A stretch of 64,000 nt of DNA from Candidatus Saccharimonadia bacterium (GTDB lineage Bacteria; Patescibacteriota; Saccharimonadia; CAILAD01; JADZBC01): contig JAYRIB010000004.1 of NCBI GenBank assembly GCA_041907025.1, positions 1,223 through 65,222 of the forward strand. Direction: 5' to 3'. Each line of letters begins with the position of its first letter. Position 1 is the stretch's first letter. The notes under the pieces were generated by a model, which saw nothing but the letters and a program-made list of their open reading frames with translations, had not been told where the DNA came from and searched no databases. Below are positions 12,137 to 55,237 of the stretch, piece by piece. The translations under genes were made by a program, and so were the position numbers.

Positions 12137-15100
12137 ATGGCTCCCAACGCCACACCACCTAAGCCTACGCTTCGATCCAAACTTCACTTGCGACCCTCAA
12201 CTTCTCTGAAAGTGAGTAAGGCGTCTGTATTTACCCTCCTGGCACTTATATCCATCCAAACCGTCAGTAGTGCCTTGCTTTGGTACGCCGGTAAGATCAA
12301 GGCTGACAGCAGTAGCCGAGTAGTAACTACGAGCCCGGCAAGTAGCGTTACTACTACCGGCGCTACGCTCAGTGGCACATACGATTACCCCACAGATGTT
12401 ACTCAGCGTGGCTTCCAGTATGGCTTGACTACTGGCTATGGCAGCCAAGTGGTGGATGACAGTGTGATGACATACGTGGATACGGGTATACTGGGCGGCG
12501 TAGATACGTCAAGCGGTAGTAGTGGCTACGCTACGGATTCCACGGGGAACCTATACTTGACTCACTTTGATGACCACACAAGTGCAAGTGTGCAAAAGTA
12601 CAGTGCAAGTGGCACTCTTGTATCTGAGTTCGGTTCACAGGGCGCAGGAGACGGGCAGTTTGACACTCCGCAGGATGTTGCTTTAGACACGAGCGGGAAC
12701 ATCTATGTCGCTGACACTAATAATAATAGGGTGCAGAAGTTGGATAGCACTGGTAATTACGTGAGCCAGTTTGACCCACTTGAGCAGGGTAGTGGTAAAT
12801 ACATCGTAGTGACTAGGGTTTCCTTAGATAGTCTAGGTAATATATACGTTTTTGGACACTGGGATAGTGATCCGGGTATATCGAATAATTGGCAGCCAGT
12901 AGTTCAGAGGTATAACGCCAGTGGCGTGTTTCAAACCCAGTTAATCAACAGTTCTGGTACGGCAACTAATCAGCTATACTCATATGCGCAAAATACCGAC
13001 CTGACAACTGATACAAGTAATAATCTATACATTACTGATGCTTATAATCACCGGGTGCTCAAATACGACAGTAGTGGCAATTTCTTGGCTCAGTGGGGAA
13101 CAACTGGCGTTGCTAGCAACGCCCCAGGCCAGTTTAATCTTCCAACTGGCATCGCGCGTGGGCCTGGCGGGCAATTGTATATTTCAGATGGCGGGAATGA
13201 CAGGGTTCAAATCATCAGCCCAGCAGGGGATTACGTACAGAGTTGGTCAGACAATCAAATTGGGTTTCCACTTAATTTAACAGTGAGCCTGAACGGTAAG
13301 ATATACGCCCAATCATGGGGGGGTGCTGGAGGCTTGGTTGTTGGTACACCATCAATCAATGCGAATATCACAAGCCTCCAGTGCGACACTACCTACCATT
13401 ACCGTGCCTTTACTACTGATGCAGACAGTACTGAATACGGTTCAGACGCTACATTTACAACAGATGCTTGTACGGGGTTGCGTAACATAACTAATTTGCC
13501 CACGACCAGCATAAGTCAAACGGGGGCTACACTCCACGGCGCTACAGATTACCCACAGGGCATTACTGGGCGCGGCTTCCAATACGGGTTAACGACTGGT
13601 TATGGTAGCACGGTAGTGGACAGTTCGGCTGTAAACGCAAGTTTTGGCAGTAAGGGGGTAACTAGTTTAAGCGGGACTACAGCGATTGACCTATCTGTCG
13701 ATGCTAACGGCTATAAGTACGTTGCATATTATGGTGATCATGTTGTTAAGAAATATGATGCCTCCAATAATCTCGTGCTTCAGTGGGGCTCAGAAGGGCT
13801 TGGGGCCGGTCAGTTCGGTGGTATTTCTGGGATTACCGCTGCGCCGGATGGCTTTGTTTATACTACGGAGTATTATCTCCAGAATGGTGGAGATATTCTT
13901 TCAAACCCCCGGGTTCAGAAGTTTGACTCCAATGGAAATTTCATTACCCAGTGGGGTTCGTTAGGGTCAGGCGATGGGCAGTTTTCAGCTCCTAAAGATG
14001 TCGCTGTAGACAAGAGTAATAACGTGTATGTTGTAGACTACAACCGCGTTCAGAAGTTTGACTCCAATGGAAATTTCATTACCCAGTGGGGTTCGTTAGG
14101 GTCAGGCGATGGGCAGTTTTCAAACCTAAGTGGTATCGCAATTGCCCCAGATGGCTCTGTGTATGTATCAGACAGGAGTAATGCCCGTATACAGAAGTTT
14201 AGTTCCAGTGGAACATTTATTCTGAAATGGGGTCAGCCGGGGGGTATGGGTGATGGTGAGTTCATCGCCCCTGAGCGAGTCGGAGTAGACGGGTCGGGCA
14301 ATGTATACGTATTGGATTATGCTGGTGGCACATTAAGGATGCAGAAGTTTGATTCAAACGGCAGTTTCCTGGCTCGTTTCGGCGGTTATTTCTATTTTGG
14401 TACCGGACTTTCTGTTACGCCATCCGGTCAGGTATATACCATAGATGCAGCTTCCACTACAGACTACTACACATATGGTATTGATGCCCCTATCACTACT
14501 CTTACCTGTGGCACAGAGTACCACTATCGTCCATACGTAACAGATCGTGGCGGCACGCAGTATGGAAACGATGCAACATTTACAACATCTGCCTGCCCGC
14601 CACTTAACATCACCACAACTAGTTTGGATGATGGCGTGGTTGGCGTGAGTTACTCTGATCTCATTACGGTCGATAATCTCCAGGGTGGCGAGACGTATAC
14701 GGTTAGTTCCGGAAGCGTGCCCCCAGGGTTGACACTTGGGTCGACAACTGGGTATTTGGAAGGGATTCCCTCACAGGAAGGACATTATTTCTTCGATGTA
14801 ACAGTTGAGAATTCTGGATCAAGCGACACCGCGCAAATAGATGTTCATATTTATAACACAAACCCACAATTAAGTATCACGACTGTGGCTATTCCGGACA
14901 CCCAAGTCGGCGCTTCGTATCAGGAATACATCTACACCAGTGACGGTGTGGGTGATGTGAGCTTCAGTATAACTTCAGGTGCGCTACCAGATGGTATGTC
15001 TATTACCTCGTACGGCACGAGCGGGGTATTGTACGGTACTCCAACTACTCCAGGGACCTATACCTTCACCGTGCAAGCTCAGGATAGCCGTGGGGCTGGT

Positions 15101-17272
15101 GTCGGCACTGATACACAGGAGTACTCCATAACGGTCTCGGCGGCTAGTATTAATATCACTACTACCAGCTTGCCGTCAGGTCTAGTGGGCTTGCCATACA
15201 ATAAAAGTATCGATTATGAGTCTGCTAACGCTCAGCCGGTCTTTTCACTTGTTTCTGGAACTTTACCTCCAGGTGTTTCTCTAACCCTTCAGGGCTATCT
15301 GCAAGGCACCCCAACGCAACAAGGTACTTACGATTTTACGGTGCAAGCCGATGATGGTTTTAGTACGGATACCCAGGCACTTAGCTTGCTCATAGGGGCA
15401 CCGGCGGCAGTTACTCCTAATACGCCTTTCGTAAAAATCACTTCGCCAGCGAATGGGGGCTCTATTGGGGCTACAAAGCTTGACGTAGCAGGTATTGGTC
15501 CTGCAGGCAATAAGGTCATACAGCTAACGATAGATAATGTTGTGCAAGGTACAACGAATACGGATAATGAAGGCAAATGGGCATATCAAGCAAGTGGTCT
15601 AAACCCAGGTTCTCATACACTGAGTGCCACTTGGGTTCCGGGCGACGATGTGGCTTTTGTGCCGTTCTTTAACCCCGAAACTTTCTCGAGCGGGATTTCG
15701 GTGATAGATAATGCTAGCTTGCAAACGGTGAAGACAATATACCTCCCAGAATATTCCTTGGCATATGGAGTAACACTCAACCATGCTCGTACTAAGTTGT
15801 ACGCATATGGGGGGCAGCTAAACTTGGGAGAGGGTGAACTTACGAGCTCTGCACAGCTATGGGAGGTTGATCTGGCAACTATGGCTATCCGCACGGTAGG
15901 TTATCCAAGTATGCCTGCCCAAATTGGCTTTGTTACTGCAGTTAACATCTCGCCAGACGACACAGGAGTCGTCCTGCTGAAGATGGAGGGCGGAGAACAG
16001 GCACAACAGGTACTAATCTCACGAGTAGATTTACCAAGCTTCACACCTACAGGGACAGACATTCAGGCTGAAGCTTTAAATACGCCAGCTGTAGTTGATA
16101 GGTTCTTTGAGCTTGCTTTAGCAAGAGCTTACACGTACAGTACCGATTCACAGCAGCGCTACATGTACTTCTTGCTAAGCGCCCTCGATGACGCACCAAG
16201 CAGTAATGAAGTGGTTGTTATTGATACACTAGATGGTAGCTCGAGTACGATCGAGCTTGGTGAGGGGGCTGAATATATACCTAAGGTAATTCAGACTGTA
16301 GGAGATAGGCTCTATGTACTCACCAGCTCGCATCTCCTCACTATTGATGTCGTTACGGGAGGTATTCTGAGCGACATTACTCCAGGTTTCAGTATCGATG
16401 GCTCCGCTTTTGGGTCCGTTGTGTTTGATGTCCCCCCAGATGGTTTGACCGCACTGCTTAGCACATCGGGATTTGGTAACTCCACTACTGTTGTTAGTAT
16501 TGACCTTGCTTCGGGCCAGTCGACTATTCTTCCGAATAGTATCGAAACCAGTAGGCGGCTGGCTAGGGCACTTGGTAAACAAGGCCCTATAGGCATAGGT
16601 ACAACTAGTGATGGTTCTAGGCTATATATTTCATCTCAGGGCCTGTATATATTTGATATGGCCAACGGGGTACCAATTGACCTGGCTGGGTTGCTCCCGC
16701 CAGGTGCAGAGGCCTCGGGACTTACAAGTCATGACTACATTGCCCCTATTCGCCCTCGAGATACCATCGCTTTTACCGTTGCTTCTGGTCCCGTATCGTG
16801 TACCACTACCAACACCTGTCCACCACCGCCGCCTTGTGCTGTGACCAACACCTGTCCACCGCCACCACCGCCCCCGACTGAACCAGCCACAGTCGGCACT
16901 ACCAATCCTAAGACTCCCAAGATTGTGGTTACACCCTTCCCACCAGCGGCATCTGCAGCCTCACGCCTGGGGTGGTTTGACCGCGGTGTTCTGGCGGTGG
17001 CTCGCTTTGTACCTGGGCAAGCAGCCATTGGTTTTCCGTTCCTCTTGTTCCTGCTCTTGCTCCTGTTTGCCCTCTCCCTGTACTATCAGTCTGCCAATGA
17101 GGTCCGTAAGGACAAGCTTAACCGTCAGTTCCTCGCCAAGCGTAAGTCCATCCGAGCGCAACAAGACAACTTTATAGCCCTGGCCTCACACTATCTCAAC
17201 ACCCCAATTACGATTATTCAGAATGGTATAGAGGTGATGGAGGAGTCGAGTAGGGGGCCAAAGAGTAAGTAA
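12137..17272 (+). CDS. giant cell-surface protein (1711 aa): NHL repeats, fibronectin/Ig-like (He_PIG-type) modules, poly-Pro linker, C-terminal TM and HisKA-like tail
   Basis: N-terminal signal anchor; at least 8 NHL-like repeats (NNRVQKFDSNGNFITQWGSLGSGDGQF); repeated modules TGATLSGTYDYPTDVTQRGFQYGLTTGYGS and CDTTYHYRAFTTDADSTEYGSDATFTTDAC; four He_PIG-like Ig modules (TLPPG..L...G.L.GTPT..GTY.FTV); TTNTCPPPPP x2; TM FPFLLFLLLLLFALSL; C-terminal FIALASHYLNTPITIIQNGIEVMEE. Confidence 0.8.
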   Translation: MAPNATPPKPTLRSKLHLRPSTSLKVSKASVFTLLALISIQTVSSALLWYAGKIKADSSSRVVTTSPASSVTTTGATLSGTYDYPTDVTQRGFQYGLTTGYGSQVVDDSVMTYVDTGILGGVDTSSGSSGYATDSTGNLYLTHFDDHTSASVQKYSASGTLVSEFGSQGAGDGQFDTPQDVALDTSGNIYVADTNNNRVQKLDSTGNYVSQFDPLEQGSGKYIVVTRVSLDSLGNIYVFGHWDSDPGISNNWQPVVQRYNASGVFQTQLINSSGTATNQLYSYAQNTDLTTDTSNNLYITDAYNHRVLKYDSSGNFLAQWGTTGVASNAPGQFNLPTGIARGPGGQLYISDGGNDRVQIISPAGDYVQSWSDNQIGFPLNLTVSLNGKIYAQSWGGAGGLVVGTPSINANITSLQCDTTYHYRAFTTDADSTEYGSDATFTTDACTGLRNITNLPTTSISQTGATLHGATDYPQGITGRGFQYGLTTGYGSTVVDSSAVNASFGSKGVTSLSGTTAIDLSVDANGYKYVAYYGDHVVKKYDASNNLVLQWGSEGLGAGQFGGISGITAAPDGFVYTTEYYLQNGGDILSNPRVQKFDSNGNFITQWGSLGSGDGQFSAPKDVAVDKSNNVYVVDYNRVQKFDSNGNFITQWGSLGSGDGQFSNLSGIAIAPDGSVYVSDRSNARIQKFSSSGTFILKWGQPGGMGDGEFIAPERVGVDGSGNVYVLDYAGGTLRMQKFDSNGSFLARFGGYFYFGTGLSVTPSGQVYTIDAASTTDYYTYGIDAPITTLTCGTEYHYRPYVTDRGGTQYGNDATFTTSACPPLNITTTSLDDGVVGVSYSDLITVDNLQGGETYTVSSGSVPPGLTLGSTTGYLEGIPSQEGHYFFDVTVENSGSSDTAQIDVHIYNTNPQLSITTVAIPDTQVGASYQEYIYTSDGVGDVSFSITSGALPDGMSITSYGTSGVLYGTPTTPGTYTFTVQAQDSRGAGVGTDTQEYSITVSAASINITTTSLPSGLVGLPYNKSIDYESANAQPVFSLVSGTLPPGVSLTLQGYLQGTPTQQGTYDFTVQADDGFSTDTQALSLLIGAPAAVTPNTPFVKITSPANGGSIGATKLDVAGIGPAGNKVIQLTIDNVVQGTTNTDNEGKWAYQASGLNPGSHTLSATWVPGDDVAFVPFFNPETFSSGISVIDNASLQTVKTIYLPEYSLAYGVTLNHARTKLYAYGGQLNLGEGELTSSAQLWEVDLATMAIRTVGYPSMPAQIGFVTAVNISPDDTGVVLLKMEGGEQAQQVLISRVDLPSFTPTGTDIQAEALNTPAVVDRFFELALARAYTYSTDSQQRYMYFLLSALDDAPSSNEVVVIDTLDGSSSTIELGEGAEYIPKVIQTVGDRLYVLTSSHLLTIDVVTGGILSDITPGFSIDGSAFGSVVFDVPPDGLTALLSTSGFGNSTTVVSIDLASGQSTILPNSIETSRRLARALGKQGPIGIGTTSDGSRLYISSQGLYIFDMANGVPIDLAGLLPPGAEASGLTSHDYIAPIRPRDTIAFTVASGPVSCTTTNTCPPPPPCAVTNTCPPPPPPPTEPATVGTTNPKTPKIVVTPFPPAASAASRLGWFDRGVLAVARFVPGQAAIGFPFLLFLLLLLFALSLYYQSANEVRKDKLNRQFLAKRKSIRAQQDNFIALASHYLNTPITIIQNGIEVMEESSRGPKSK

Positions 17273-17542
17273 CTTATGCTCGCATGGTGGTGCCCAGAAA
17301 GGTATAATAAGTGGCGAAAGAATCCATATGCGAGCAAAAACACTTTTTCTCATTATGATCATCACAACCTACGGGTATTACCTGCACACTATGTCGGGCG
17401 CCGTGCAGCGCCAAGCAGACGGCCTTATGCGCCAATATAACGCGGCGTTAATAACTGCCAGCGAAACAGCCGATTATTCCGCGCCGAACAATCTAGTAGT
17501 TCAAAAACCAACAGCTAACTAACAGGTAGGGCAAACAATAGT

Positions 17543-19206: not shown

Positions 19207-19610
19207 AGTTAGTCAGTGAGTGATCGCTCCACGGCGCAAGCCAAGGAGAGGAAAGTCCGAACAGCGTAGAGTAGGGTGGTTGCTAACGGCAACCGAGGGA
19301 GACCTTAGGGAAAGTGCCACAGAGACAATACCGCCCCTCACATTTATGGCAACATAAAAGGTGCGGGGTAAGGGTGAAAAGAGTGCGGTAAAAGCGCACA
19401 GCGGACCTTAGGTGACTAGGTCTGGAGGTAAACCCCACCTGCTGCAAGACTATGGGCCCCGTCGCAAGACAGAGTTACTCGCTCTTAGTTGGGTTTGTCG
19501 CATGATGTAGCCTTCGGGCTGCACGCCAACTGTAGCAATGCAGGAGGAAGATAGATGATCACAGCTAGCCTTCGGGTTAGACACAGAATTCGGCTTATAG
19601 CTGACTAACT
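19207..19610 (+). ncRNA. rnpB: RNase P RNA (bacterial type A)
   Basis: P1 pairing AGTTAGTCAG/CTGACTAACT; conserved P4 and other blocks GGAAAGTCCGAACAGC, AGGGAAAGTGCCACAGAGACAA, GGTAAACCCCACCTG, ACAGAATTCGGCTTATAG. Confidence 0.85.
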
Positions 19611-19695
19611 AGGCACTTATTTTGTTATATTTACTTCTCAGCAGGCACAAGGGAAAGTTTCATACGCTATTATGCTAGAATAAGAGATAACGACC

Positions 19696-32146: not shown

Positions 32147-32524
32147 GGGGCTGACCAGCTTCGACGTTGGATTCTTGACATATAACTGCAAGCCGCCTGA
32201 TCGACGTTACAGATCAATCACAATAAGTGCAAACACTTTTGTTAGCAAAGTAAAAGCTGCTTTTAGCATGCCAAGCTTTGCGCCAGCTTACGCCTAAAAA
32301 CGTTCGCCGCCTATTGCGCCTGACATCAGATGAAGCGCAGGGCGTCACAGTATCTGGTTGCTTAGCTATCGTTCTATCCGGTAGCTCCTAAGACGCAGAA
32401 TAGAGGAGTGATGAGTATGTTTGGCTCGCTTTAAGTGCCTGTACCTCCCAAAACAACCACCAAGCAAGCTAAGCTTGTAGTACGTTATAGAGACAGACTA
32501 GCGGACCAGGGTGCGATTCCCTGC
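32147..32524 (+). ncRNA. ssrA: tmRNA (SsrA)
   Basis: 5' GGGGCUGACCAGCUUCGACG matches the tmRNA 5' consensus GGGGCUGAUUCUGGAUUCGACG. The 3' end GGACCAGGGUGCGAUUCCCUGCAGCUCCACCA is the tRNA-like T-arm/acceptor/CCA. Candidate tag ORF GCA AAC ... GCC TAA at 32229-32297 (ANTFVSKVKAAFSMPSFAPAYA*); its frame is uncertain. TATAGT -10 at 32131-32136. Confidence 0.8.
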
Positions 32525-32542
32525 AGCTCCACCAAAGCTCTT

Positions 32543-32567: not shown

Positions 32568-32867
32568 CTGGTTTTTTGTATTATAAACAGAGAGAGGGTA
32601 GATGCACTTGCTGCTATTCTCGCCATACTATAAGGACAACGACAGGAAGCACCTTGCCAGAAGGGGGCATGATGGTTACAGGAGGAAAACTCTATTCATT
32701 TGGTATGACGTCATGCTACAATCGTGCCATCAGTTAAGTATTGTACTGCTGAAGATCCTTATACCCTTTGAGAGCGGCGTCTTGTGTTTATTTCGCCCAT
32801 AAGACGCCGCTCTCAACAAAAGTTGAGCTACCTCATCGGTAGTTTCTACGGCAAAGGAGCTATTTCC

Positions 32868-33407
32868 ATGCAAGGTGATTCGCAAACCGAGGTCGTAGCA
32901 ATCGACCTCAGCAAGCCGTGGCAGGTCGTCGAGATGACGGCCGAAGAGTTCCTGCTTCGTATGGCAGCGATCGGTCCGTACAAGGACATCAACCTGGTCG
33001 GCTCGTTTGCCGATCCTGATGACCAGGCAGCCCGCACCGCTCACCGCGACAAGGACCTGCCCTGGCATCGCGACGGCATCGAGAGCCAGGCCATCAAGGA
33101 CATGCAGGGCGGCAGGTACATCACGGCGCCGAACGTGGACGTGGTTGGGATGTACTGCCTCCGCGACAACCGAGAGCCCGGGTCGGACGTCCGCACACCG
33201 TGCTACACGGTGCTCGCGGAAGCCGCGCCCGATGCTGACCCGTACGACGACTCCCAGTTCGCGATCGTGGCCGAGGTTGATCTGCGACCGGGTCAGGCAC
33301 TCATCTGGGACAACCGTCTCTGGCATCGACGCCATGGGCCGGTCGGCAGTCGGGTGAACATCCGCTTCTGGTCGACCTGCCCTGCGCTGTACGAGGTCCG
33401 GCCATGA
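32868..33407 (+). CDS. Fe(II)/2-oxoglutarate dioxygenase-like protein (TauD/TfdA-like motifs), high-GC gene
   Basis: LPWHRDG (HxD) and C-terminal ALIWDNRLWHRRHGPVGSRVNIRF, which resembles TauD WDNR..H.A......R.M.R. Third-position GC is very high and AAAGGAG lies 7 nt upstream. The ORF extends to 32784 through low-GC non-coding-looking sequence. Confidence 0.4.
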   Translation: MQGDSQTEVVAIDLSKPWQVVEMTAEEFLLRMAAIGPYKDINLVGSFADPDDQAARTAHRDKDLPWHRDGIESQAIKDMQGGRYITAPNVDVVGMYCLRDNREPGSDVRTPCYTVLAEAAPDADPYDDSQFAIVAEVDLRPGQALIWDNRLWHRRHGPVGSRVNIRFWSTCPALYEVRP

Positions 33408-33934
33408 TCTTGCCGGAAGGAGCGGCGGTCGTAGGATGTCGACGCTGTGGTGTCGACATCTTCCAGGAGGAAGGTGGGAAGTGGGCAACAGTTGCCTACC
33501 CCATTGCCGACCCTTATGACTGTGAGGGGGGCGCACATGCTCCTGCGGGCAGCCTCTTCGAGCTCGGCCCGTTCGCTCTTCCTGATGGGCGTGTGACGGG
33601 CTTCAAGATCGAGTGCGATCTCGTGGAGCTGGAATCGTGGGCGGCTCTCGCCCGGGTTGCGGCTGAGCTCCTGGATCCGTTCGGTGCCGTCGAGGGCGTA
33701 CCCCGAGGCGGGGTGGCGTTCGCGGAGGCGCTTGAGCCGTACATCGATCCTTCGAGCAAGACGCTCCTGATCGCCGATGACGTGTGGGTCAGCGGCACTT
33801 CGATGGAGCGCCACCGAGCTGGCCGAGACGCCTTTGGCGTTGTGGCCTTCGCTCGGAACCCCGTGGCGCAGTGGGTCAAGTCGATCCTCTCCCTCAACCC
33901 CGAGGCTGAGGCAGCCACATACCGGCTTCAATAG
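33404..33934 (+). CDS. Zn-ribbon plus phosphoribosyltransferase-domain protein (ComF/PRTase-like), high-GC gene
   Basis: N-terminal CRRCG...DCEGG; PRTase motifs VEGVPRGGVAFAEALE and KTLLIADDVWVSGTSM. ATGA overlap with the upstream gene. Confidence 0.4.
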   Translation: MILPEGAAVVGCRRCGVDIFQEEGGKWATVAYPIADPYDCEGGAHAPAGSLFELGPFALPDGRVTGFKIECDLVELESWAALARVAAELLDPFGAVEGVPRGGVAFAEALEPYIDPSSKTLLIADDVWVSGTSMERHRAGRDAFGVVAFARNPVAQWVKSILSLNPEAEAATYRLQ

Positions 33935-34289
33935 CTCAACAACGTTAACCATCGTCGGCATATGTTGTATGGGTTACCGCGATACACAGTCTGGGTTCGT
34001 GCGACCACAATCGCACTGACCTGCCAGTCCGCATGGACCGTCTACTGGAGCGTCATTCCAGGGCTCGATTGAAGGATCGAGCCACTACCCAAGTGCATAA
34101 TCCAGTGATTATGAGTTTAGGTGGTATAGTGCTAATCCCTCACGTTACTCAACCCAGCTGTGTACCTAGAGTAGGGGGTAGCTAGAATCTCCCTCCATCG
34201 ACCTGATTCAGCCATTAGTTCGTGCCACAAAAAACGTACCCGCTCCACCAAAAGGGATTTTCGTGACTCACAAAGATCTTTGTTTGCTG

Positions 34290-36292: not shown

Positions 36293-37480
36293 ATGTTGCC
36301 AGTAACTAGGGGCACAATTGATAACTTGCAGCAATCAGTCGATCAAACGTCTGAAGCGCTGGATAGTTATGCCCAAAAGCAGCCTAAGCAGGCCGAGGAG
36401 CTCAGAGAGCACATAACTGCTATGGCCAAGATAGTAGGTGGGTTGTCGGCCAAGATTAATGCTGTTGATAGGCTGGGTGAGAAGAATTACTTTATACCAG
36501 ATCCTAAGAACCCACTGCTGAGCGCGGCTTTCTTGGCGCCTGTACTTATCTTGATGGTAGTAGTTACCGTCTCAATCTGGTTATTTAACTTGGCAGGCTT
36601 ATTGGGCTCAGACATCATCTATATTGTTACTCTAGGGGTGGGCTTGCTTCTGGTTATGCAGGTGTTGGTGAGCAACATTCGCAACCTACAGCTCCGTCGG
36701 CGGATCGCCAAGCAGTCAGGCACTGCGATTAACGAGGAGCTGCAGCTTGAGCACGCTCGGGCGGAGTTCTTCAAGGCTGCCACCGATGAGTTGCAGGGGC
36801 ATTTGTTTGCGATAACTTCGGCGATCCCACGGGGGAGCGACCCTGCAATCGATGACGCGGCTCAACGGCTTATTACACTCCTTGATCGTATGGCTCTGAT
36901 TTCAACGCTAACAAACCGCGGCGCCGACTACGTGCTCAATACCGAGCCTGTTGATATGCCTGTGTTACTTTCGCAGATCATAGCTAATAGTCATACTCAG
37001 GCTCAGGCGGCGGGGGTACAGGTGAAGCTTGATGCTCCTAAGCAGCTCACCTACGAACTCGACCCACTTTTGCTCACCCAGGCTATCTCCCCAGTGCTGG
37101 ACAACGCTATCAAGTTTTCAAAGGACGCTCAGGCTGGCGGTCGAGTTCTGGTGGCATTAAAGCCAATACATCGTGGTTTTGAGCTCAAAATTGCTGATAA
37201 TGGTCCAGGCATTAGTCTTGAGCGTAGATCCCAGCTGTTTAAGCCATTCTCGCGAGGCGAAGACGCGCTACGCTTTAATTACGAAGGCGCCGGGCTTGGG
37301 CTTTACCTTACGAGCCTCGCAACAGGCCTCCTGGGGGCGTACGTGGAAATTGGTAATCCCAAGGCAGGGACTGAAATTATCTGGAGGTTTGATTCTCTGG
37401 TGCCAACCTCGCCTGAACAGTCTAGGGCTAAGCCTGGGCACAAACCAGCTCACAATACGCTTTCTCCTGCAGCGCACTAA
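36293..37480 (+). CDS. sensor histidine kinase (two TM helices, HisKA plus HATPase_c)
   Basis: Two TM helices, H-box region ...ELQGHLFAITSAI..., and ATP-binding motifs DNGPGISLERRSQLFKPFSRG and GAGLGLYLTS. Confidence 0.7.
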   Translation: MLPVTRGTIDNLQQSVDQTSEALDSYAQKQPKQAEELREHITAMAKIVGGLSAKINAVDRLGEKNYFIPDPKNPLLSAAFLAPVLILMVVVTVSIWLFNLAGLLGSDIIYIVTLGVGLLLVMQVLVSNIRNLQLRRRIAKQSGTAINEELQLEHARAEFFKAATDELQGHLFAITSAIPRGSDPAIDDAAQRLITLLDRMALISTLTNRGADYVLNTEPVDMPVLLSQIIANSHTQAQAAGVQVKLDAPKQLTYELDPLLLTQAISPVLDNAIKFSKDAQAGGRVLVALKPIHRGFELKIADNGPGISLERRSQLFKPFSRGEDALRFNYEGAGLGLYLTSLATGLLGAYVEIGNPKAGTEIIWRFDSLVPTSPEQSRAKPGHKPAHNTLSPAAH

Positions 37481-51453: not shown

Positions 51454-52424
51454 GCTCAATCATTGAATCCGCGCGGAGCGCTGCCGCAGCCGCCCAAACT
51501 GAGAATGATTTACAGCTTGTTAAAGCGCAGTTTCTAGGTAAGAAGAGCGAGCTCCAGGCCGGTTTGCGCGCGCTTTCAAGCCTGGGCCAAGAAGAGCGCA
51601 AGCAAAAGGGAGCCGAGCTTAACCGTCTAAAGCTGGAGCTCGAAGAAGTATTTTCTTTGCGCCATGCTTCGCTCCTCAACGAGCTTGATGCCCTACCGCC
51701 ACTTGATCTTACGGCACCTGGTATTGGCCAGGGGTTTGGCCATGCCCATCCAGTAACGCTCGTTATGAGTGAGCTATATAGCTCGTTTACTCGCTTGGGC
51801 TTTGCGATAGTTGATAGCAACGAAATAGAGGATGACTGGCACAACTTTGAGGCACTGAATATGCCGCCGCACCACCCGGCCCGCGATATGCAGGACACGT
51901 TTTATATTAAGGACAGCGAAGACTCTCATCGTATTCTGCCTCGTACTCACACCTCTGGCATGCAGGTACGGTTTATGAAGGATAACAAGCCACCGTTTAA
52001 GATCATCGTGCCGGGCAAGGTTTTCCGGAATGAAGATGAAGACAGAACACACTTGTGGTCATTTACCCAGGTGGAAGGTTTGGTTGTGGGTGAAGGGGTG
52101 TCGTTAGTACATCTTAAAGGCGTGTTACTTGCAGCTATGAAAGACTTGTTAGGTGAAGACACAGAGATTCGATTGCGACCGAGTTATTTTCCTTACACTG
52201 AACCATCGATTGAGATCGACGTGACTTACAAGGGAGAGTGGTTGGAGCTTCTGGGTGGCGGCATGGTACACCCAAGTGTACTACAGAACGCTGGTATTGA
52301 CCCTGAGCGCTATAGCGGTTTTGCCTTTGGTATCGGGCCGGAGCGGGTTGCTATGGTGAAGTATCGCATCTCGGATTTACGCAACTTTTGGCGACCAAAG
52401 CTTGACTATCTGGAGCAGTTTTAA
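51450..52424 (+). CDS. pheS: phenylalanyl-tRNA synthetase alpha subunit
   Basis: Class II motifs HPARDMQDTFY, FRNEDEDRTHLWSFTQVEG and GFAFGIGPERVAM. Confidence 0.9.
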   Translation: MSSIIESARSAAAAAQTENDLQLVKAQFLGKKSELQAGLRALSSLGQEERKQKGAELNRLKLELEEVFSLRHASLLNELDALPPLDLTAPGIGQGFGHAHPVTLVMSELYSSFTRLGFAIVDSNEIEDDWHNFEALNMPPHHPARDMQDTFYIKDSEDSHRILPRTHTSGMQVRFMKDNKPPFKIIVPGKVFRNEDEDRTHLWSFTQVEGLVVGEGVSLVHLKGVLLAAMKDLLGEDTEIRLRPSYFPYTEPSIEIDVTYKGEWLELLGGGMVHPSVLQNAGIDPERYSGFAFGIGPERVAMVKYRISDLRNFWRPKLDYLEQF

Positions 52425-55237
52425 TGAAGCTTTCCGTTAAAACACTCAATACTTACCTTAAGAAACCACTTACTACAGAGCGAGTAGTTGAGCTTCTGGG
52501 CCGCACTGAAGTTGAGATTGAAGAGGTTGTTTCAGCTAACACCTGGGACGAGAAGATCATTGCTGCCAAGGTCCAAGAGGTACGGCAGCATCCAGACGCT
52601 GATCGTTTACGCATAGCCACCGTTGATACTGGGTTGGAAACTGTAGAGATTGTCTGCGGTGCACCGAACTTGGCTCAGCACCAAGTTGTTGTCTTGGCGC
52701 AAGTTGGCGCCACATTGCCTGATGGTTTGCGGATCGAATCGGCTAAGCTTCGTGGAGTAACTTCGAATGGTATGCTGTGCTCGGCCAAAGAGCTTGGTAT
52801 TTCAGACGATCATGCTGGGATTATGGTGCTACCAGATGAAACACCACTTGGCGCAACATTGTGCGACATATGGCAAAAGGGCGACACCCTTGATATAAAG
52901 ACACCTGCAAACAGGTGGGATTATCTTAGTTTTGTTGGGCTGGCCAGGGAAGTGGCTGCTCAGGATGAGGGGAACGAGCTGGTAGAGCCACCAGTCGAGG
53001 AAATTACATATTGCGACACTGAACTTGTAAAAGTCAAGGAAAAGGGGGAATGTAGGCGATTCGTGAGCGTTAAGATGTCTGTGAATAACGCTGTGAAGTC
53101 CCCGCAGTGGCTTGTGGATAACTTAGAAGAGAATGGCCTGCGCAGCATTAGTCCTGTTGTAGACATTACCAACTTTGTCATGCTTGAGACTGGCCAGCCT
53201 TCGCACGCTTACGACGCCAAAAAGCTACACGGTGCGTTGCAGGTACGCTTTGGCTCCCCCACCGATAAACTTACAACATTAGATGGCGTGGTGCGCAACT
53301 TGGGTGTTGAGGATCTGGTGATAGCAGACGATAGTGGTGTAATAGCCTTGGCGGGCGTGATGGGCGGCGTGAGTACTGAAGTTGACGCCCAGACGACCGA
53401 GATCCTCTTGGAGGTTGCCAACTTTGACCGCACAAGGGTGCGTAAGGCGGCATTAAGACACGGTTTGCGCAGTGAAGCGTCGGCCCGGTTCGAGCGCTCA
53501 CTCCCTCTCCCCTTGCCTACTTTGGCAGCTAGTCGACTTATATCCTTACTTAAAGAAGTTGCTGAGGCAAAGGTGATTGACTCCCCTTGTGACCAGCTCT
53601 ATGGTTGGCCTTGGGTTCAGCAAATTGGCTTACGTTTACGCAAGGCGGAAAAGCTCTTAGGCACGCCGCTTGATGAAAAGCAGGTGATGAGTGGGCTCAA
53701 GCAGCTCGGATTTGAAGTTGAGCATTTTAGTATTACCAAGGAATCGCGCAAGCACCTAGGTAAGCCGTATATCTGGGGTGCAAATTTCCGAGAGCACGGC
53801 GAATCTGGCTTTGATTGTTCATACCTCATTGATCGCATCTATTCACGCATTGGTGTGCATGTTGGCCACGTGGCGCTTGGTCAATTCCACTTTGGGCGGC
53901 CAGTCGAGGTTGGTGACTTACGCCCAGGCGACGTGGTATTTTACGAAGGCTTAATTAAGAATTCACCAACCGATCACTACTATGTGGCCGACGGCCGCGG
54001 CGGTCACACTAAGATCGAACTTGACAAGCCTATGAAGGTGGGGCATAACGGCATATACATTGGCGACAACCGAGTAATAACTGCTATTCAGTATGAACGC
54101 AAAGGAGAAGACTGGGTTCCTCGGGCCGAGCAAGGCGTGATCGAGGTGCCATTAAGTGACTTCACCAACGACCCAACTTATCTGGGTGCTCGACGCTATG
54201 TTGAGAACTTTAATCATATTCTGGCTATCACAGCACCTTGGTGGAGGACGGATGTGCGCTTAGAAGAAGACATGATTGAGGAAATCGTGAAGATTATCGG
54301 CTATGATGCGATTCCAGCTGAACTACCTCCCCTGCCTCCAACCAACACGCGACCGCATCAACTACTTCCACGGATACTGGAGTTTAAAAAGGCATTGAGC
54401 GCTAGTGGTCTGCAAGAGATTGTGTCATATTCATTTATTAGCGAACGCTCGATTAAGCGCCTGCATCAGAATCCCCATGACTTTCTTGAGATCGCAAACC
54501 CGCTCAGCCGCGAACAGCAATTCTTGCGTCGATCAATGCTACCGAGTCACCTCGATATGGTCAGAAATAACCAGACGTATGCGAAGGAGTTTTTGTGCTT
54601 TGAGGTTGCTCGCACCTATCGGCCCACACAAGACGGCGCTTTGCCAAGCGAGATTTGGCAGCTGGGTATTACGGTGGTGGGTCCGCAGAGTACCCTGAGA
54701 CTTAAAAAAGTGTTCGATAATGTAGCTCAGTATTGTGGCGCCAACCTCGAGTACCAGCCAGTTGATGAGATGCCGTTTGTACCTGGCCGAAGGGCAATAG
54801 TTAAGCAGGAAGAAACTCACCTTGGTAGCTTTGGCCAGTTGAGTAAGCAAGTGCTTGCAGCGAGCGAGATTAGCGCAGAAGTTAGCTATGGCGAGCTGGA
54901 GCTGGGTGAGTTGCTCGGTAGTGAAACGCAACTACATGTTGCTGATCTGCCTGACTATCAGCTTGTAAGGCGTGATATTACGTTTAGCTGCCAATCAGGA
55001 GTGGCTTGGACAGATGTGTGCCGCCTTGTAGCTCAGTCTCAGGGTGTTATGAAGGTTGAGTATCTCGATCAGTATCAGGATGCAGCAATGCAGAAGGATC
55101 GTATTAAGCGTTTAAGTTTGCGTTTGTGGTTCGATCTTGGCGCCAACCCAACTGCTGAGGAGATCAAGAAGCGCCAGGATGCAGTTGAACGAACGCTGAC
55201 ATCGAGCGAAACACTGGGCAAAGTCACAATTAACTAG
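52424..55237 (+). CDS. pheT: phenylalanyl-tRNA synthetase beta subunit carrying an inserted NlpC/P60 domain
   Basis: N-terminal tRNA-binding domain, B3/B4, B5 (...LGTPLDEKQVMSGLKQLGFEVE / ITAPWWRTDVRLEEDMIEEIVKIIGYDAIP), core and C-terminal FDX domains. 937 aa against a typical length of about 800, owing to an insert of about 160 aa. Confidence 0.85.
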   Translation: MKLSVKTLNTYLKKPLTTERVVELLGRTEVEIEEVVSANTWDEKIIAAKVQEVRQHPDADRLRIATVDTGLETVEIVCGAPNLAQHQVVVLAQVGATLPDGLRIESAKLRGVTSNGMLCSAKELGISDDHAGIMVLPDETPLGATLCDIWQKGDTLDIKTPANRWDYLSFVGLAREVAAQDEGNELVEPPVEEITYCDTELVKVKEKGECRRFVSVKMSVNNAVKSPQWLVDNLEENGLRSISPVVDITNFVMLETGQPSHAYDAKKLHGALQVRFGSPTDKLTTLDGVVRNLGVEDLVIADDSGVIALAGVMGGVSTEVDAQTTEILLEVANFDRTRVRKAALRHGLRSEASARFERSLPLPLPTLAASRLISLLKEVAEAKVIDSPCDQLYGWPWVQQIGLRLRKAEKLLGTPLDEKQVMSGLKQLGFEVEHFSITKESRKHLGKPYIWGANFREHGESGFDCSYLIDRIYSRIGVHVGHVALGQFHFGRPVEVGDLRPGDVVFYEGLIKNSPTDHYYVADGRGGHTKIELDKPMKVGHNGIYIGDNRVITAIQYERKGEDWVPRAEQGVIEVPLSDFTNDPTYLGARRYVENFNHILAITAPWWRTDVRLEEDMIEEIVKIIGYDAIPAELPPLPPTNTRPHQLLPRILEFKKALSASGLQEIVSYSFISERSIKRLHQNPHDFLEIANPLSREQQFLRRSMLPSHLDMVRNNQTYAKEFLCFEVARTYRPTQDGALPSEIWQLGITVVGPQSTLRLKKVFDNVAQYCGANLEYQPVDEMPFVPGRRAIVKQEETHLGSFGQLSKQVLAASEISAEVSYGELELGELLGSETQLHVADLPDYQLVRRDITFSCQSGVAWTDVCRLVAQSQGVMKVEYLDQYQDAAMQKDRIKRLSLRLWFDLGANPTAEEIKKRQDAVERTLTSSETLGKVTIN

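Follow-up and report, generated by a model that had tools for sequence, protein, structure and literature searches.

Domain architecture of the giant membrane protein

The forward strand of the window, by which we mean the entire 64-kb stretch of Candidatus Saccharibacteria DNA analyzed, carries between positions 12137 and 17272 a single unbroken ORF with an ATG start. Its product, a giant membrane protein of 1711 amino acids (aa), is by far the largest encoded in the window (the next largest ORF has 1034 aa), in agreement with an earlier note on this DNA. Based on the ORF and its homologs, we annotate the whole gene as a putative receptor/phospho-acceptor subunit of "type A". Its homologs comprise an identical protein (P0001, for which no exact-sequence match was found in the contig collection) and full-length orthologs (P0002 to P0005, P0007, P0010, P0012, and P0013). 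The start codon matches that of P0004 and P0005, and the site of the gene is syntenic in five related genomes (L001, L003, L005, L006, and L012). All features described below lie on the forward strand.

Hydropathy and charge predict a cytoplasmic N terminus (aa 1 to 28, net charge +6) followed by a first transmembrane segment, TM1 (aa 29 to 49; positions 12137 to 12283 together), a stretch that is 69 to 71% identical to P0004 and P0005. The remainder is predicted to consist of an ectodomain of about 1570 aa, a second transmembrane segment, TM2 (approximately aa 1628 to 1650), and a cytoplasmic tail of 59 aa. With positive charge N-terminal of TM1 and C-terminal of TM2, the protein thus has the predicted layout of an extracytoplasmic sensor flanked by two transmembrane segments; the N-terminal anchor and C-terminal TM read earlier correspond to its two hydrophobic segments.

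The N-terminal portion of the ectodomain consists of two FN3-like domains, each of which is interrupted by a six-bladed NHL propeller. FN3-like domain a is made up of an N-terminal half (positions 12311 to 12460; AF2 pLDDT of 89 to 97), the inserted propeller 1 (12461 to 13348; supported by Pfam NHL at 83 bits, AF2, and Foldseek), and a C-terminal half (13349 to 13477; C416...YHYR...DATFTTDAC445, from sequence and AF2). FN3-like domain b repeats this arrangement, with halves assigned by sequence at 13478 to 13630 and 14477 to 14599 (C791...YHYR...DATFTTSAC820) and propeller 2 (Pfam NHL, 72.5 bits) inserted at 13631 to 14476. While Pfam confirmed the NHL assignment of the earlier note (PF01436; 127.4 bits for the whole protein and 83.3 and 72.5 bits for two segments, against a cutoff of 20), the "at least eight repeats" described there are in fact two six-bladed propellers with nine strong and three degenerate blade motifs. 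Likewise, the motif GFQYGLTTGYGS does occur twice (aa 92 and aa 480), but the pair of sandwich-like modules that it was taken to mark are not separate domains but the N-terminal halves of the propeller-interrupted FN3-like domains. Only two of the three claimed CxxxYHYR...DATFTT modules were found (aa 416 to 445 and aa 791 to 820), and instead of being disulfide-bounded domains of their own they are the C-terminal halves.

Several observations underlie this reassignment. Across 123 homologs, the spacing between the GFxYG and YHYR motifs was either 36 to 41 aa (12 units) or 269 to 345 aa (53 units); the short class includes FN3b of ortholog P0005, which lacks propeller 2 and in which this domain is contiguous. 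Since the FN3 halves are contiguous when the insert is absent, the "sandwich" and YHYR modules can be regarded as two halves of one FN3-like domain. When spliced together, these halves weakly matched the FN3-like family Pur_ac_phosph_N (profile positions 13 to 93 of 93; 15.6 bits against a cutoff of 30). An AF2 model of aa 59 to 447, which covers only propeller 1 of the two NHL propellers, reached a pLDDT of 91.9 and a pTM of 0.89, featured the expected six-bladed NHL propeller with both FN3a halves at a pLDDT of 89 to 97, and could be aligned with the Lin41 filamin-NHL structure over about 396 columns. Foldseek matched propeller 1 to the NHL domains of Thin, TRIM2, TRIM3, and TRIM71 (E values of 1e-19 to 1e-15, target TM score of about 0.8) and also to the sensor domain of PknD (1rwi). 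Propeller 2 contains a 79-nt direct repeat (positions 13909 to 13987 and 14044 to 14122) with 99% identity between copies, suggesting a recent blade duplication. This nesting of an NHL propeller in an FN3 domain recurs as a composite module, with 53 occurrences among 123 homologs, and is relevant to the evolution of domain insertions and to protein engineering.

The propeller-bearing region is followed by four Ig-like domains. Three of them, at positions 14600 to 15412, belong to He_PIG (PF05345; 59.7 bits for the whole protein and 90.2 bits in three stretches of the segment, cutoff of 24), whereas the fourth (aa 1093 to 1170; positions 15413 to 15646), also assigned to He_PIG in the earlier note, is rather a Big_7/Big_3_5-like domain, with Pfam scores of 23.6 to 24.4 bits that are just under the cutoffs (for Big_7, 23.6 bits against 24.1). 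Weak Y_Y_Y matches were also observed within the Ig region. Next comes a feature that had been overlooked, a membrane-proximal, hypervariable beta-propeller of the YVTN type with about seven blades (aa 1171 to 1550, approximately 380 aa; positions 15647 to 16786). Its fold resembles the seven-bladed propellers of YVTN proteins, and no Pfam family matched aa 1171 to 1560 at an E value of up to 10, nor did sequence profiles place it in the YVTN or YncE families. Its structural comparator is found in archaeal S-layer or surface proteins that combine a YVTN propeller with PKD/Ig domains (fragment of Methanosarcina mazei MM_1976, PDB accession no. 1l0q); however, the giant shares no Pfam- or sequence-level family with these S-layer proteins, which in turn lack a kinase-derived cytoplasmic tail. 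Two further candidate relationships were rejected: kinship with ScyF/PEP-CTERM proteins (ScyF, the top NCBIfam match, scored 244.7 bits against a cutoff of 350, through the NHL blades only) and an enzymatic propeller (lactonase, Vgb lyase, or phytase-like), whose matches fell below cutoffs and reflect a similarity common to propellers in general.

Between the YVTN-type propeller and the membrane lies the Pro-rich stalk already recognized in the earlier note, a Pro/Cys-rich segment (approximately aa 1555 to 1600; positions 16787 to 16960) with C-x5-C repeats of the TNTCPPP type. The number of these stalk repeats differs among orthologs. A conserved juxtamembrane segment and TM2 (positions 16961 to 17092), which form part of our profile A1, are 82 to 89% identical to the orthologs.

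The cytoplasmic tail and its family

The 59-aa tail (aa 1653 to 1711; positions 17093 to 17269) features, according to the HisKA profile and its conservation, helix 1 of a DHp domain with the H-box FIALAS-H1685-YLNTPITIIQ, after which the ORF ends. The codon of the presumed phospho-acceptor, His1685, occupies positions 17189 to 17191, and the protein stops 26 residues past it. The stub matched positions 2 to 30 of the 66 positions of HisKA with 15.3 to 19.2 bits, under the Pfam cutoff of 26.9; it contains helix 1 only and is therefore not a complete DHp domain, although the H-box His is present and invariant. HATPase_c is absent from the giant's own polypeptide, and no enzymatic Pfam domain was found in it. 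The earlier statement that the protein carries no recognizable enzymatic domain therefore holds in this respect, but the helix that would serve as kinase substrate had been missed. A regular-expression search of the 64-kb window found no H-box ORF besides the giant gene.

The tail is the best-conserved part of the protein, with 83 to 92% identity to the orthologs, compared to 20 to 23% for the YVTN propeller and 25 to 58% for the NHL propellers. The same mosaic is seen between paralogs inside one genome, which are 91 to 95% identical over their last 110 aa and just 23 to 28% identical in the YVTN propeller. All full-length orthologs stop 21 to 26 residues after the His with a near-identical sequence, and this shared stop position, together with the near-identical tails, argues for a conserved tail and not for a truncation artifact.

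We assembled the homolog set by an exhaustive profile search, as a word-index search of 5.8 billion proteins with the 122-aa C-terminal module is insensitive to subsequences (it returned three short fragments only and missed the identical parent protein). The 621 cluster representatives obtained fall into three classes according to the length of the tail after the His: 21 to 26 aa, as in the giant's clade; 48 to 58 aa, comprising the DHp domain only; and about 353 to 450 aa, corresponding to full kinases with HATPase_c. The tail is thus homologous to the H-box (SHYLxTP) of a large kinase family, and the 15 homologs that could be placed in genomes of the species-representative collection all come from Saccharibacteria, Patescibacteria, or unclassified-bacterium MAGs. 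This family has a Tyr beside the His, where HisKA kinases usually carry Glu or Asp, suggesting that its chemistry may differ from that of the usual HisKA domain.

A stub of this kind could in principle be the remains of a full-length kinase gene broken by a frameshift, sequencing error, or misassembly, especially as unsplit relatives exist (P0156 and L008) and the 79-nt near-perfect repeat could mislead assemblers. Yet at least 10 independent clusters, drawn from different samples, share the same or nearly the same stop, and the tail is under strong purifying selection. Moreover, no kinase remnant or frameshifted continuation was found after the stop (positions 17273 to 17542), only an ORF for a small membrane protein of 64 aa (17328 to 17522) that is conserved at the same position in L001, L003, L005, and L012 (39 to 61% identity); HIT also lies downstream of the giant gene. 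The conserved junction between giant and kinase genes at the loci described below likewise argues against an artifact, and we regard this explanation as effectively refuted.

A candidate catalytic partner 19 kb downstream

Nineteen kilobases downstream of the giant gene, at positions 36293 to 37480, lies a 395-aa ORF that Pfam and our family HMM identify as the candidate catalytic subunit, with a leader, helix 2 of a DHp domain, a TM hairpin, a helical region devoid of His, and HATPase_c. Pfam HATPase_c matches it with 62.5 bits and the family CA HMM with an E value of 2.6e-38, and it keeps the N, G1, F, and G2 boxes; neither a HisKA match nor an H-box was found in it. When both proteins were aligned with the unsplit kinase P0156, the tail of the giant aligned up to residue 1762 and the 395-aa protein covered residues 1754 to 2075. 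The two alignments abut with an overlap of a few residues, showing that acceptor and catalytic parts are collinear with the unsplit homolog; in L008, both homologies are contiguous and in frame within one ORF of 2112 aa. When the tail was joined in silico to the 395-aa protein, the hybrid scored 26.9 bits against HisKA, equal to the Pfam cutoff, over positions 2 to 55 of 66 and across the junction, and it could be aligned with KdpD (6lgq) along both helices of the DHp domain, His matching His. The catalytic subunit does, however, carry an N-terminal leader of 20 to 55 aa that is missing from the unsplit kinases, such that a simple complementation of the hairpin by helix 1 and helix 2 is not geometrically assured.

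Genomic context ties this catalytic gene to giants of a second kind. In related genomes, its homologs sit directly downstream of paralogous "type B" giant genes, with which they form an operon; in four loci (L016, L002, L004, and L007), the TGA stop of the giant gene overlaps the catalytic ATG (TGATG), and this one-base overlap is likewise seen in the gene calls for L016 and L017. The catalytic proteins of the TGATG loci are just 56 to 61% identical to the 395-aa protein of the window. The type A giant, in contrast, never adjoins a catalytic gene and only co-occurs with it on the same contig, where it lies upstream, separated from it by about 19 kb in the window and by some 17.5 kb in contig CAZRJR010000003.1 (L005, L018). 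On both contigs, which derive from MAGs and do not represent whole genomes, type A is the sole giant seen. We pair type A with the catalytic subunit because its stub is near-identical to that of type B and because of this co-occurrence. The catalytic gene also persists intact, with its N, G1, F, and G2 boxes, at loci that have no adjoining giant, namely those of the window, L018, L020, and L021. No response regulator was found in the 64-kb window, in which 30 neighboring or small ORFs were checked.

The conservation of the tail points to contact with a conserved cytoplasmic partner, but the same evidence would also fit a regulatory decoy, in which the stub is not phosphorylated and instead associates with the catalytic subunit or with a paralogous kinase of full length, modulating or sequestering it on ligand binding. 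The Tyr at His+1, which could be incompatible with catalysis, would favor a decoy, as would the conserved His that the catalytic subunit has in its own helix 2 (motif L(R/K)xH..AMAKIVG). However, this helix-2 His is missing from the unsplit relative P0156, and the full kinases of the family use S-H-Y-L as their sole H-box, which is thus presumably the functional acceptor. We therefore consider a decoy improbable.

A putative split receptor kinase and its possible roles

Taken together, these sequence comparisons make it somewhat probable, in our judgment, that Candidatus Saccharibacteria possess a naturally split sensor histidine kinase, of which the giant is the subunit that acts as receptor and carries the phospho-acceptor. 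In such a system, the ectodomain, in which two NHL propellers nested in FN3 are combined with four Ig-like domains and a YVTN propeller, would bind a ligand; the most plausible candidates are glycans or other surface components, either of the host bacterium or of the environment. The resulting conformational change in the ectodomain, probably dimerized via the Cys-rich stalk, would be relayed through TM2 to helix 1, which would pack on helix 2 of the catalytic subunit, itself in the membrane. His1685 would then be phosphorylated in trans and its phosphate passed to a response regulator.

The earlier note had instead proposed a host-attachment adhesin, and part of this proposal holds: the protein is anchored in the envelope, its ectodomain consists entirely of binding-type modules, and its propellers diverge far more rapidly than the housekeeping genes on either side, as would be anticipated for a protein in surface contact, so that binding of a host or environmental ligand remains plausible. 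One could accordingly picture a structural adhesin or S-layer-like protein that binds the host surface or coats the cell, with TM2 and the tail reduced to an anchor or dimerizing coiled coil inherited from a kinase ancestor and devoid of phosphotransfer. This would agree with the rapid variation of propellers and domain number among strains (besides the loss in P0005, P0125 has a different N-terminal module), with the location of the gene beside the envelope-synthesis genes for UppP, a sugar transferase, and GT4, and with the several surface proteins required for epibiotic growth of Saccharibacteria (PMC10633639). A plain anchor, however, would not need an invariant S-H-Y-L-N-T-P box, and the His and its neighbors are identical across proteins whose ectodomains are only 20 to 50% identical, as well as in the DHp-only class. 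Further arguments against this role are that the catalytic half is encoded in the window and kept intact even without an adjoining giant gene, that the topology is that of a sensor kinase with the acceptor helix as its most conserved part, and that neither LPxTG nor any other known sorting signal was detected in the protein by motif scan or NCBIfam sorting domains. While we thus hold a purely structural role to be rather unlikely and the architecture points to signaling over passive attachment, binding or adhesion may form part of the role.

Histidine kinases divided between polypeptides have been described before. In CheA3/CheA4 of Rhodobacter sphaeroides and Hik36/Hik43 of Synechocystis, both split CheA-type kinases, acceptor and catalytic domains are located on separate, associating polypeptides that engage in trans-phosphorylation, and hik36 and hik43 are distant in the genome (PMC3591291, PMC7656254). 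The giant and the 395-aa protein would share this division of labor, and like hik36 and hik43 their genes lie apart. Yet the former systems are cytoplasmic, of the CheA class, and split between the HPt domain (P1) and P3-P5, whereas here a transmembrane kinase of the HisKA class is apparently divided within its DHp hairpin, helix 1 falling on one polypeptide and helix 2 on the other, and both halves are membrane anchored, the acceptor half bearing the large ectodomain. EnvZ split in vitro into its DHp "domain A" and catalytic "domain B" demonstrates that HisKA and HATPase are able to function when placed on separate chains, and about 3.7% of the HisKA-containing proteins in SMART lack HATPase (PMC3591291). 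This HisKA-only pattern is fitted by the DHp-only sister class (tail of 48 to 58 aa), of which the L011 member adjoins a catalytic gene; unlike these proteins and the EnvZ fragments, the giant retains just helix 1 and not the whole DHp domain. In the searchable literature, we found no description of a kinase split inside the DHp hairpin, and searches combining Saccharibacteria with NHL, histidine kinase, or propeller returned nothing relevant.

The closest comparison is offered by the unsplit giant kinases of Patescibacteria (P0156, P0030, P0032, and L008), which to our knowledge are uncharacterized. Their juxtamembrane region, TM2, and H-box are homologous to those of the giant, their ectodomains combine NHL, FN3, and Ig domains, including FN3 with nested NHL, and a TM hairpin between H-box and HATPase_c is common to them and the split pair. 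In contrast to the giant, they are single chains of about 2100 to 2650 aa with 353 to 450 residues past the His, and their ectodomains are only distantly similar. A propeller ectodomain on a transmembrane kinase also has a precedent in PknD of M. tuberculosis, whose NHL propeller, the structural match to propeller 1 mentioned above, senses outside the membrane on behalf of the kinase; PknD is, however, an unsplit Ser/Thr kinase. In the hybrid two-component glycan sensors (HTCS) of Bacteroides, an ectodomain of Reg_prop propellers and Y_Y_Y serves as ligand sensor, but HTCS proteins are unsplit single-chain hybrid kinases, and the propeller families and domain order of both PknD and HTCS differ from those of the giant.

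One catalytic subunit may serve several giant receptors (types A and B). It is tempting to speculate, if only tentatively, that this reflects a modular "plug-in" receptor kinase, in which one small membrane-anchored catalytic subunit is common to interchangeable giant receptors that each donate helix 1, such that the DHp four-helix bundle would be formed within the membrane from two polypeptides. If this were true, receptors could be swapped or lost while the catalytic core stays untouched, and the hypervariable propellers would let ultrasmall epibionts couple the recognition of host-surface ligands to signaling.

Should the tail turn out to be no more than an anchor, the revised domain layout and the uneven conservation between orthologs (at least 83% identity in the tail, 20 to 58% in the propellers) would still aid the annotation of surface proteomes in the candidate phyla radiation (CPR). 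If the split is functional, proteins now annotated as "hypothetical," "YncE," or "YvrE" would be flagged as signaling receptors, and the pair would constitute a naturally occurring histidine kinase that is split within the DHp hairpin and bears its acceptor helix on a giant surface receptor and its catalytic core on a second membrane protein. Saccharibacteria are obligate epibionts with very few regulators, and a functional split kinase would provide a concrete candidate for how they sense host contact or environmental ligands.

Domain anatomy of the giant protein

The largest gene of the window, as the earlier note had claimed, is the open reading frame (ORF) at 12137..17272 (+), which starts with ATG and encodes 1,711 amino acids. 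It is a single continuous ORF, and the ATG chosen fits the N termini of the aligned orthologs. Public data hold an identical protein (P0001) and full-length orthologs with 34-51% identity. The C-terminal module was located at 15 genomic loci, all of them from MAGs of Saccharibacteria, Patescibacteria, or unclassified bacteria, and the gene itself is one of Candidatus Saccharibacteria. That it is a pseudogene or an artefact of assembly can effectively be dismissed.

From N to C terminus, the protein comprises a cytoplasmic N terminus, a first transmembrane segment (TM1), two FN3 domains each with a nested NHL propeller, three He_PIG domains, one Ig domain, a YVTN propeller, a Pro/Cys stalk, TM2, and a cytoplasmic tail. 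Hydropathy places the transmembrane segments at aa 29-49 and ~aa 1628-1650, in agreement with the signal anchor and TM proposed earlier, and the proposed NHL repeats were recovered by Pfam at 127 bits (cutoff, 20). He_PIG was likewise detected (59.7 bits for the whole protein and 90.2 bits for the segment; cutoff, 24), although the four copies originally counted resolve into three He_PIG domains and one Big_7-like Ig domain. The CxxxYHYR...DATFTT modules number two (aa 416-445 and 791-820) rather than three. Furthermore, these “disulfide-bounded” modules and the “sandwich” modules (…GFQYGLTTGYGS), previously described as separate domains, are the two halves of a single domain, probably FN3-like, between which a six-bladed NHL propeller is inserted.

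Evidence for this nested arrangement comes from 123 homologs, in which the spacing between GFxYG and YHYR is bimodal: 36-41 aa in 12 units, corresponding to contiguous FN3 domains, and 269-345 aa in 53 units, corresponding to one inserted propeller, with a few units at 554-603 aa. The orthologous second unit of the homolog P0005 is such a contiguous FN3 domain without a propeller. An AlphaFold2 model of aa 59-447 (pLDDT, 91.9; pTM, 0.89), built from a 24-sequence alignment, was confident in both FN3 halves. Foldseek matched it to NHL domains from the proteins Thin, TRIM2, and TRIM71 (best E, 1e-19) as well as to the extracellular NHL sensor domain of the Mycobacterium tuberculosis kinase PknD. 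Since the spliced halves matched an FN3-like profile only weakly (15.6 bits), the FN3 assignment draws chiefly on the units that are naturally contiguous. Propeller 2 contains a 79-nt direct repeat (99% identity; 13909-13987 and 14044-14122) spaced by exactly one blade (135 nt), which indicates a recent blade duplication or gene conversion; such a repeat is also a possible trap for short-read assembly. In P0125, a 1,908-aa relative of the stub class (see below), the He_PIG, Ig, YVTN, stalk, and tail modules are shared with the giant protein, and a Gly-rich, beta-helix-like N-terminal region replaces the NHL/FN3 units. This architecture suggests that the distal ectodomain may be exchanged like a cassette.

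The cytoplasmic tail and its kinase family

TM2 is followed by 59 cytoplasmic residues (“…RAQQDNFIALAS-H-YLNTPITIIQNGIEVMEESSRGPKSK”), which match positions 2-30 of the 66 in the HisKA profile, i.e., helix 1 of the phospho-acceptor domain (DHp) with its H-box, at 15.3-19.2 bits, below the cutoff of 26.9; there the chain ends. No kinase remnant was found in the 270 nt 3' of the gene, where there is instead a conserved 64-aa ORF. This ORF (17328-17522, +), immediately 3' of the giant gene, starts with a hydrophobic segment and probably encodes a genuine small membrane protein, since its position is kept at four related loci (L001, L003, L005, and L012; 39-61% identity). All full-length orthologs end 21-26 residues past the same His with almost identical sequence, and this shared end point rules out a truncation artefact as the source of the short tail.

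Identity to the homologs P0002-P0005 differed strongly among regions, at 83-92% in the cytoplasmic tail, 82-89% in the TM2 region, 56-91% in the FN3 halves, 55-69% in the He_PIG domains, 25-58% in the NHL propellers, and 20-23% in the YVTN propeller. Similarly, two paralogs in one genome are 91-95% identical over their last 110 residues, compared with 23-28% in the YVTN propeller. The gene occupies a fixed syntenic site (PaaX(-), tRNA-Pro, giant gene, small ORF, HIT, UppP, RNase H, sugar transferase), and its neighbors are 53-90% identical between genomes. The ectodomain thus evolves much faster than the surrounding genes and the tail more slowly, the latter being under strong purifying selection. 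Between the RNase H and sugar-transferase genes of the window lies a class A RNase P RNA (19208-19613; 211.8 bits).

An exhaustive search of 1.84 billion cluster representatives, using a profile that spans the juxtamembrane region, TM2, and the H-box, found 621 proteins, which fall into three classes, checked with Pfam, according to the residues past the His. The stub class, the clade of the giant protein, has 21-26 residues; a DHp-only class has 48-58, with a nearly invariant “QNNFVALSTHYLHTPLTVMEGEI” box and ectodomains of either NHL plus He_PIG or DUF285; and complete kinases have ~353-450, including HATPase_c. The complete kinases show an unusual layout, in which the H-box DHp is followed by a TM hairpin, a His-less helical region, and then HATPase_c. 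Family-wide (P0155-P0261; window 17186-17206), the H-box reads S-H-Y-L-x-T-P, with Tyr in place of the usual Glu or Asp after the phospho-acceptor His. The tail is homologous to the helix that bears the phospho-acceptor in these kinases. The DHp-only class represents a second, independent split point within the same family. Two of its members (L011, 205-3037; L013, 6239-10369) have a complete DHp at their end and no catalytic domain. The DHp-only gene of L011 shares its last 17 nt with a gene for a 306-aa protein, composed of a TM hairpin and HATPase_c; within locus L013, no such gene follows. The class thereby resembles the stub proteins, for which an adjacent catalytic gene is likewise present at some loci and absent at others (see below).

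The predicted catalytic half and its neighborhood

The window encodes a separate predicted catalytic half, which together with the giant protein is collinear on an unsplit kinase. An HMM for the catalytic end, built on 90 full kinases of the H-box family, matched exactly one window ORF (36293..37480, +, 395 aa; E=2.6e-38), in which Pfam detected HATPase_c (62.5 bits) and no HisKA, and whose N, G1, F, and G2 boxes are intact. This protein aligns with P0156, an unsplit kinase, over residues 1754-2075 (E=7e-30) and the giant's tail aligns as far as residue 1762, so that the two abut with an overlap of a few residues. At the related locus L008, a single 2,112-aa ORF holds both homologies, contiguous and in frame. 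When the tail was joined in silico to the 395-aa protein from residue 23 onward, the fusion matched HisKA positions 2-55 across the junction at 26.9 bits, exactly the Pfam cutoff and a higher score than the 21-23 bits reached by natural unsplit family members. The fusion also aligned with both DHp helices of Escherichia coli KdpD, placing the giant's His on the KdpD phospho-His. The cut therefore lies in or near the DHp hairpin loop, with predicted helix 1 on the giant protein and predicted helix 2, TM hairpin, and catalytic domain on the 395-aa protein.

The catalytic subunits form a tight family (388-423 aa, HATPase_c as the only domain). A His in DHp helix 2 is conserved in all split subunits (that of the window and P0263-P0273), within the motif “L(R/K)xH..AMAKIVG”; this His lines up with “IRQH” of KdpD helix 2 and is missing from P0156. 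Their leader of 20-55 aa, without counterpart in unsplit kinases, is a weak point of the split-kinase reading.

The catalytic gene also has a fixed site: catalytic gene, (NUDIX), FBA(-), SmpB(-), ArgRS, AddA-like helicase. At L002, L004, L007, and L016, it directly follows a second giant stub gene, a paralog termed type B, whose TGA stop overlaps the catalytic ATG (TGATG), and gene calls at L016 and L017 show the same one-base overlap. This junction is kept though the catalytic proteins are just 56-61% identical to the window's, which speaks for a stable operon, probably with translational coupling, and against a sequencing frameshift. The catalytic gene of the window, like those of L018, L020, and L021, has no giant gene beside it and is nonetheless intact. 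The only giant gene seen in the window, and likewise in contig CAZRJR010000003.1, is of type A, the type of the 1,711-aa protein, and lies ~19 kb and ~17.5 kb upstream of the catalytic gene, respectively. The type-B place is filled in the window by a tmRNA (32147-32534), an adjoining GC-richer 1.3-kb segment, DUF218, and an acyltransferase. The segment (32730-34000; G+C, 0.555 versus ~0.50) carries two ORFs (32784-33407, +; 33404-33934, +) without counterpart in syntenic loci, and it could be explained as a small island or as a replacement at the tmRNA site.

Elsewhere in the window, the phenylalanyl-tRNA synthetase beta chain (52424-55237, +) carries an NlpC/P60 plus C92-amidase-like insert (aa 446-595) between its B3_4 and B5 domains; it is unusual for the fold of a cell-wall hydrolase to be combined with a housekeeping enzyme. 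The ORF at 57292-59808 encodes a VirD4/TraG-like type IV secretion coupling protein.

A possible split sensor kinase

Judged from these homologies, the giant protein would most likely, and in our view somewhat probably, be one subunit of a split sensor kinase, serving as its receptor and phospho-acceptor. The type-A protein would pair with the catalytic subunit, His1685 would be phosphorylated in trans, and ligand binding by the propellers would control this phosphorylation. Alternatively, the protein could be purely structural or adhesive, its tail being a vestigial anchor; this reading, which we regard as unlikely, leaves unexplained both the invariant H-box and the retention of an orphan catalytic subunit. 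The earlier note had proposed a candidate host-attachment adhesin, an interpretation that is partly supported; its underlying observation is partly confirmed. The split-kinase reading has further weak points in the Tyr beside the His and in the absence of a response regulator among the window ORFs checked. A decoy or regulator role appears distinctly improbable. We file the gene as part of a putative split histidine kinase and also as a member of the NHL and He_PIG surface-protein families.

Propeller sensor domains on membrane kinases are known from PknD, one of the structural matches of the NHL/FN3 model, and from the hybrid two-component glycan sensors of Bacteroides. Split histidine kinases are known but rare, e.g., CheA3/CheA4 of Rhodobacter sphaeroides and Hik36/Hik43 of Synechocystis; EnvZ is separable in vitro into DHp and catalytic domains, and ~3.7% of HisKA proteins have no HATPase (PMC3591291, PMC7656254). 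Three features seem new here: a transmembrane kinase of the HisKA class appears to be cut within its DHp hairpin, its acceptor half bears a giant multi-propeller ectodomain, and one catalytic subunit is apparently common to paralogous receptors. The searchable literature yielded no description of a split giant-receptor kinase in Saccharibacteria. A Tn-seq study of Southlakia reported surface proteins that are essential and carry lectin-like, dockerin, and FN3 domains, and its main text does not contain the terms “histidine kinase,” “NHL,” “propeller,” or “two-component” (PMC10633639).

As first described, the giant gene would not stand out among those of Candidate Phyla Radiation (CPR) bacteria; with its kinase-derived tail and a separately encoded partner, it offers a specific and testable clue to the way an epibiont may sense its surroundings.
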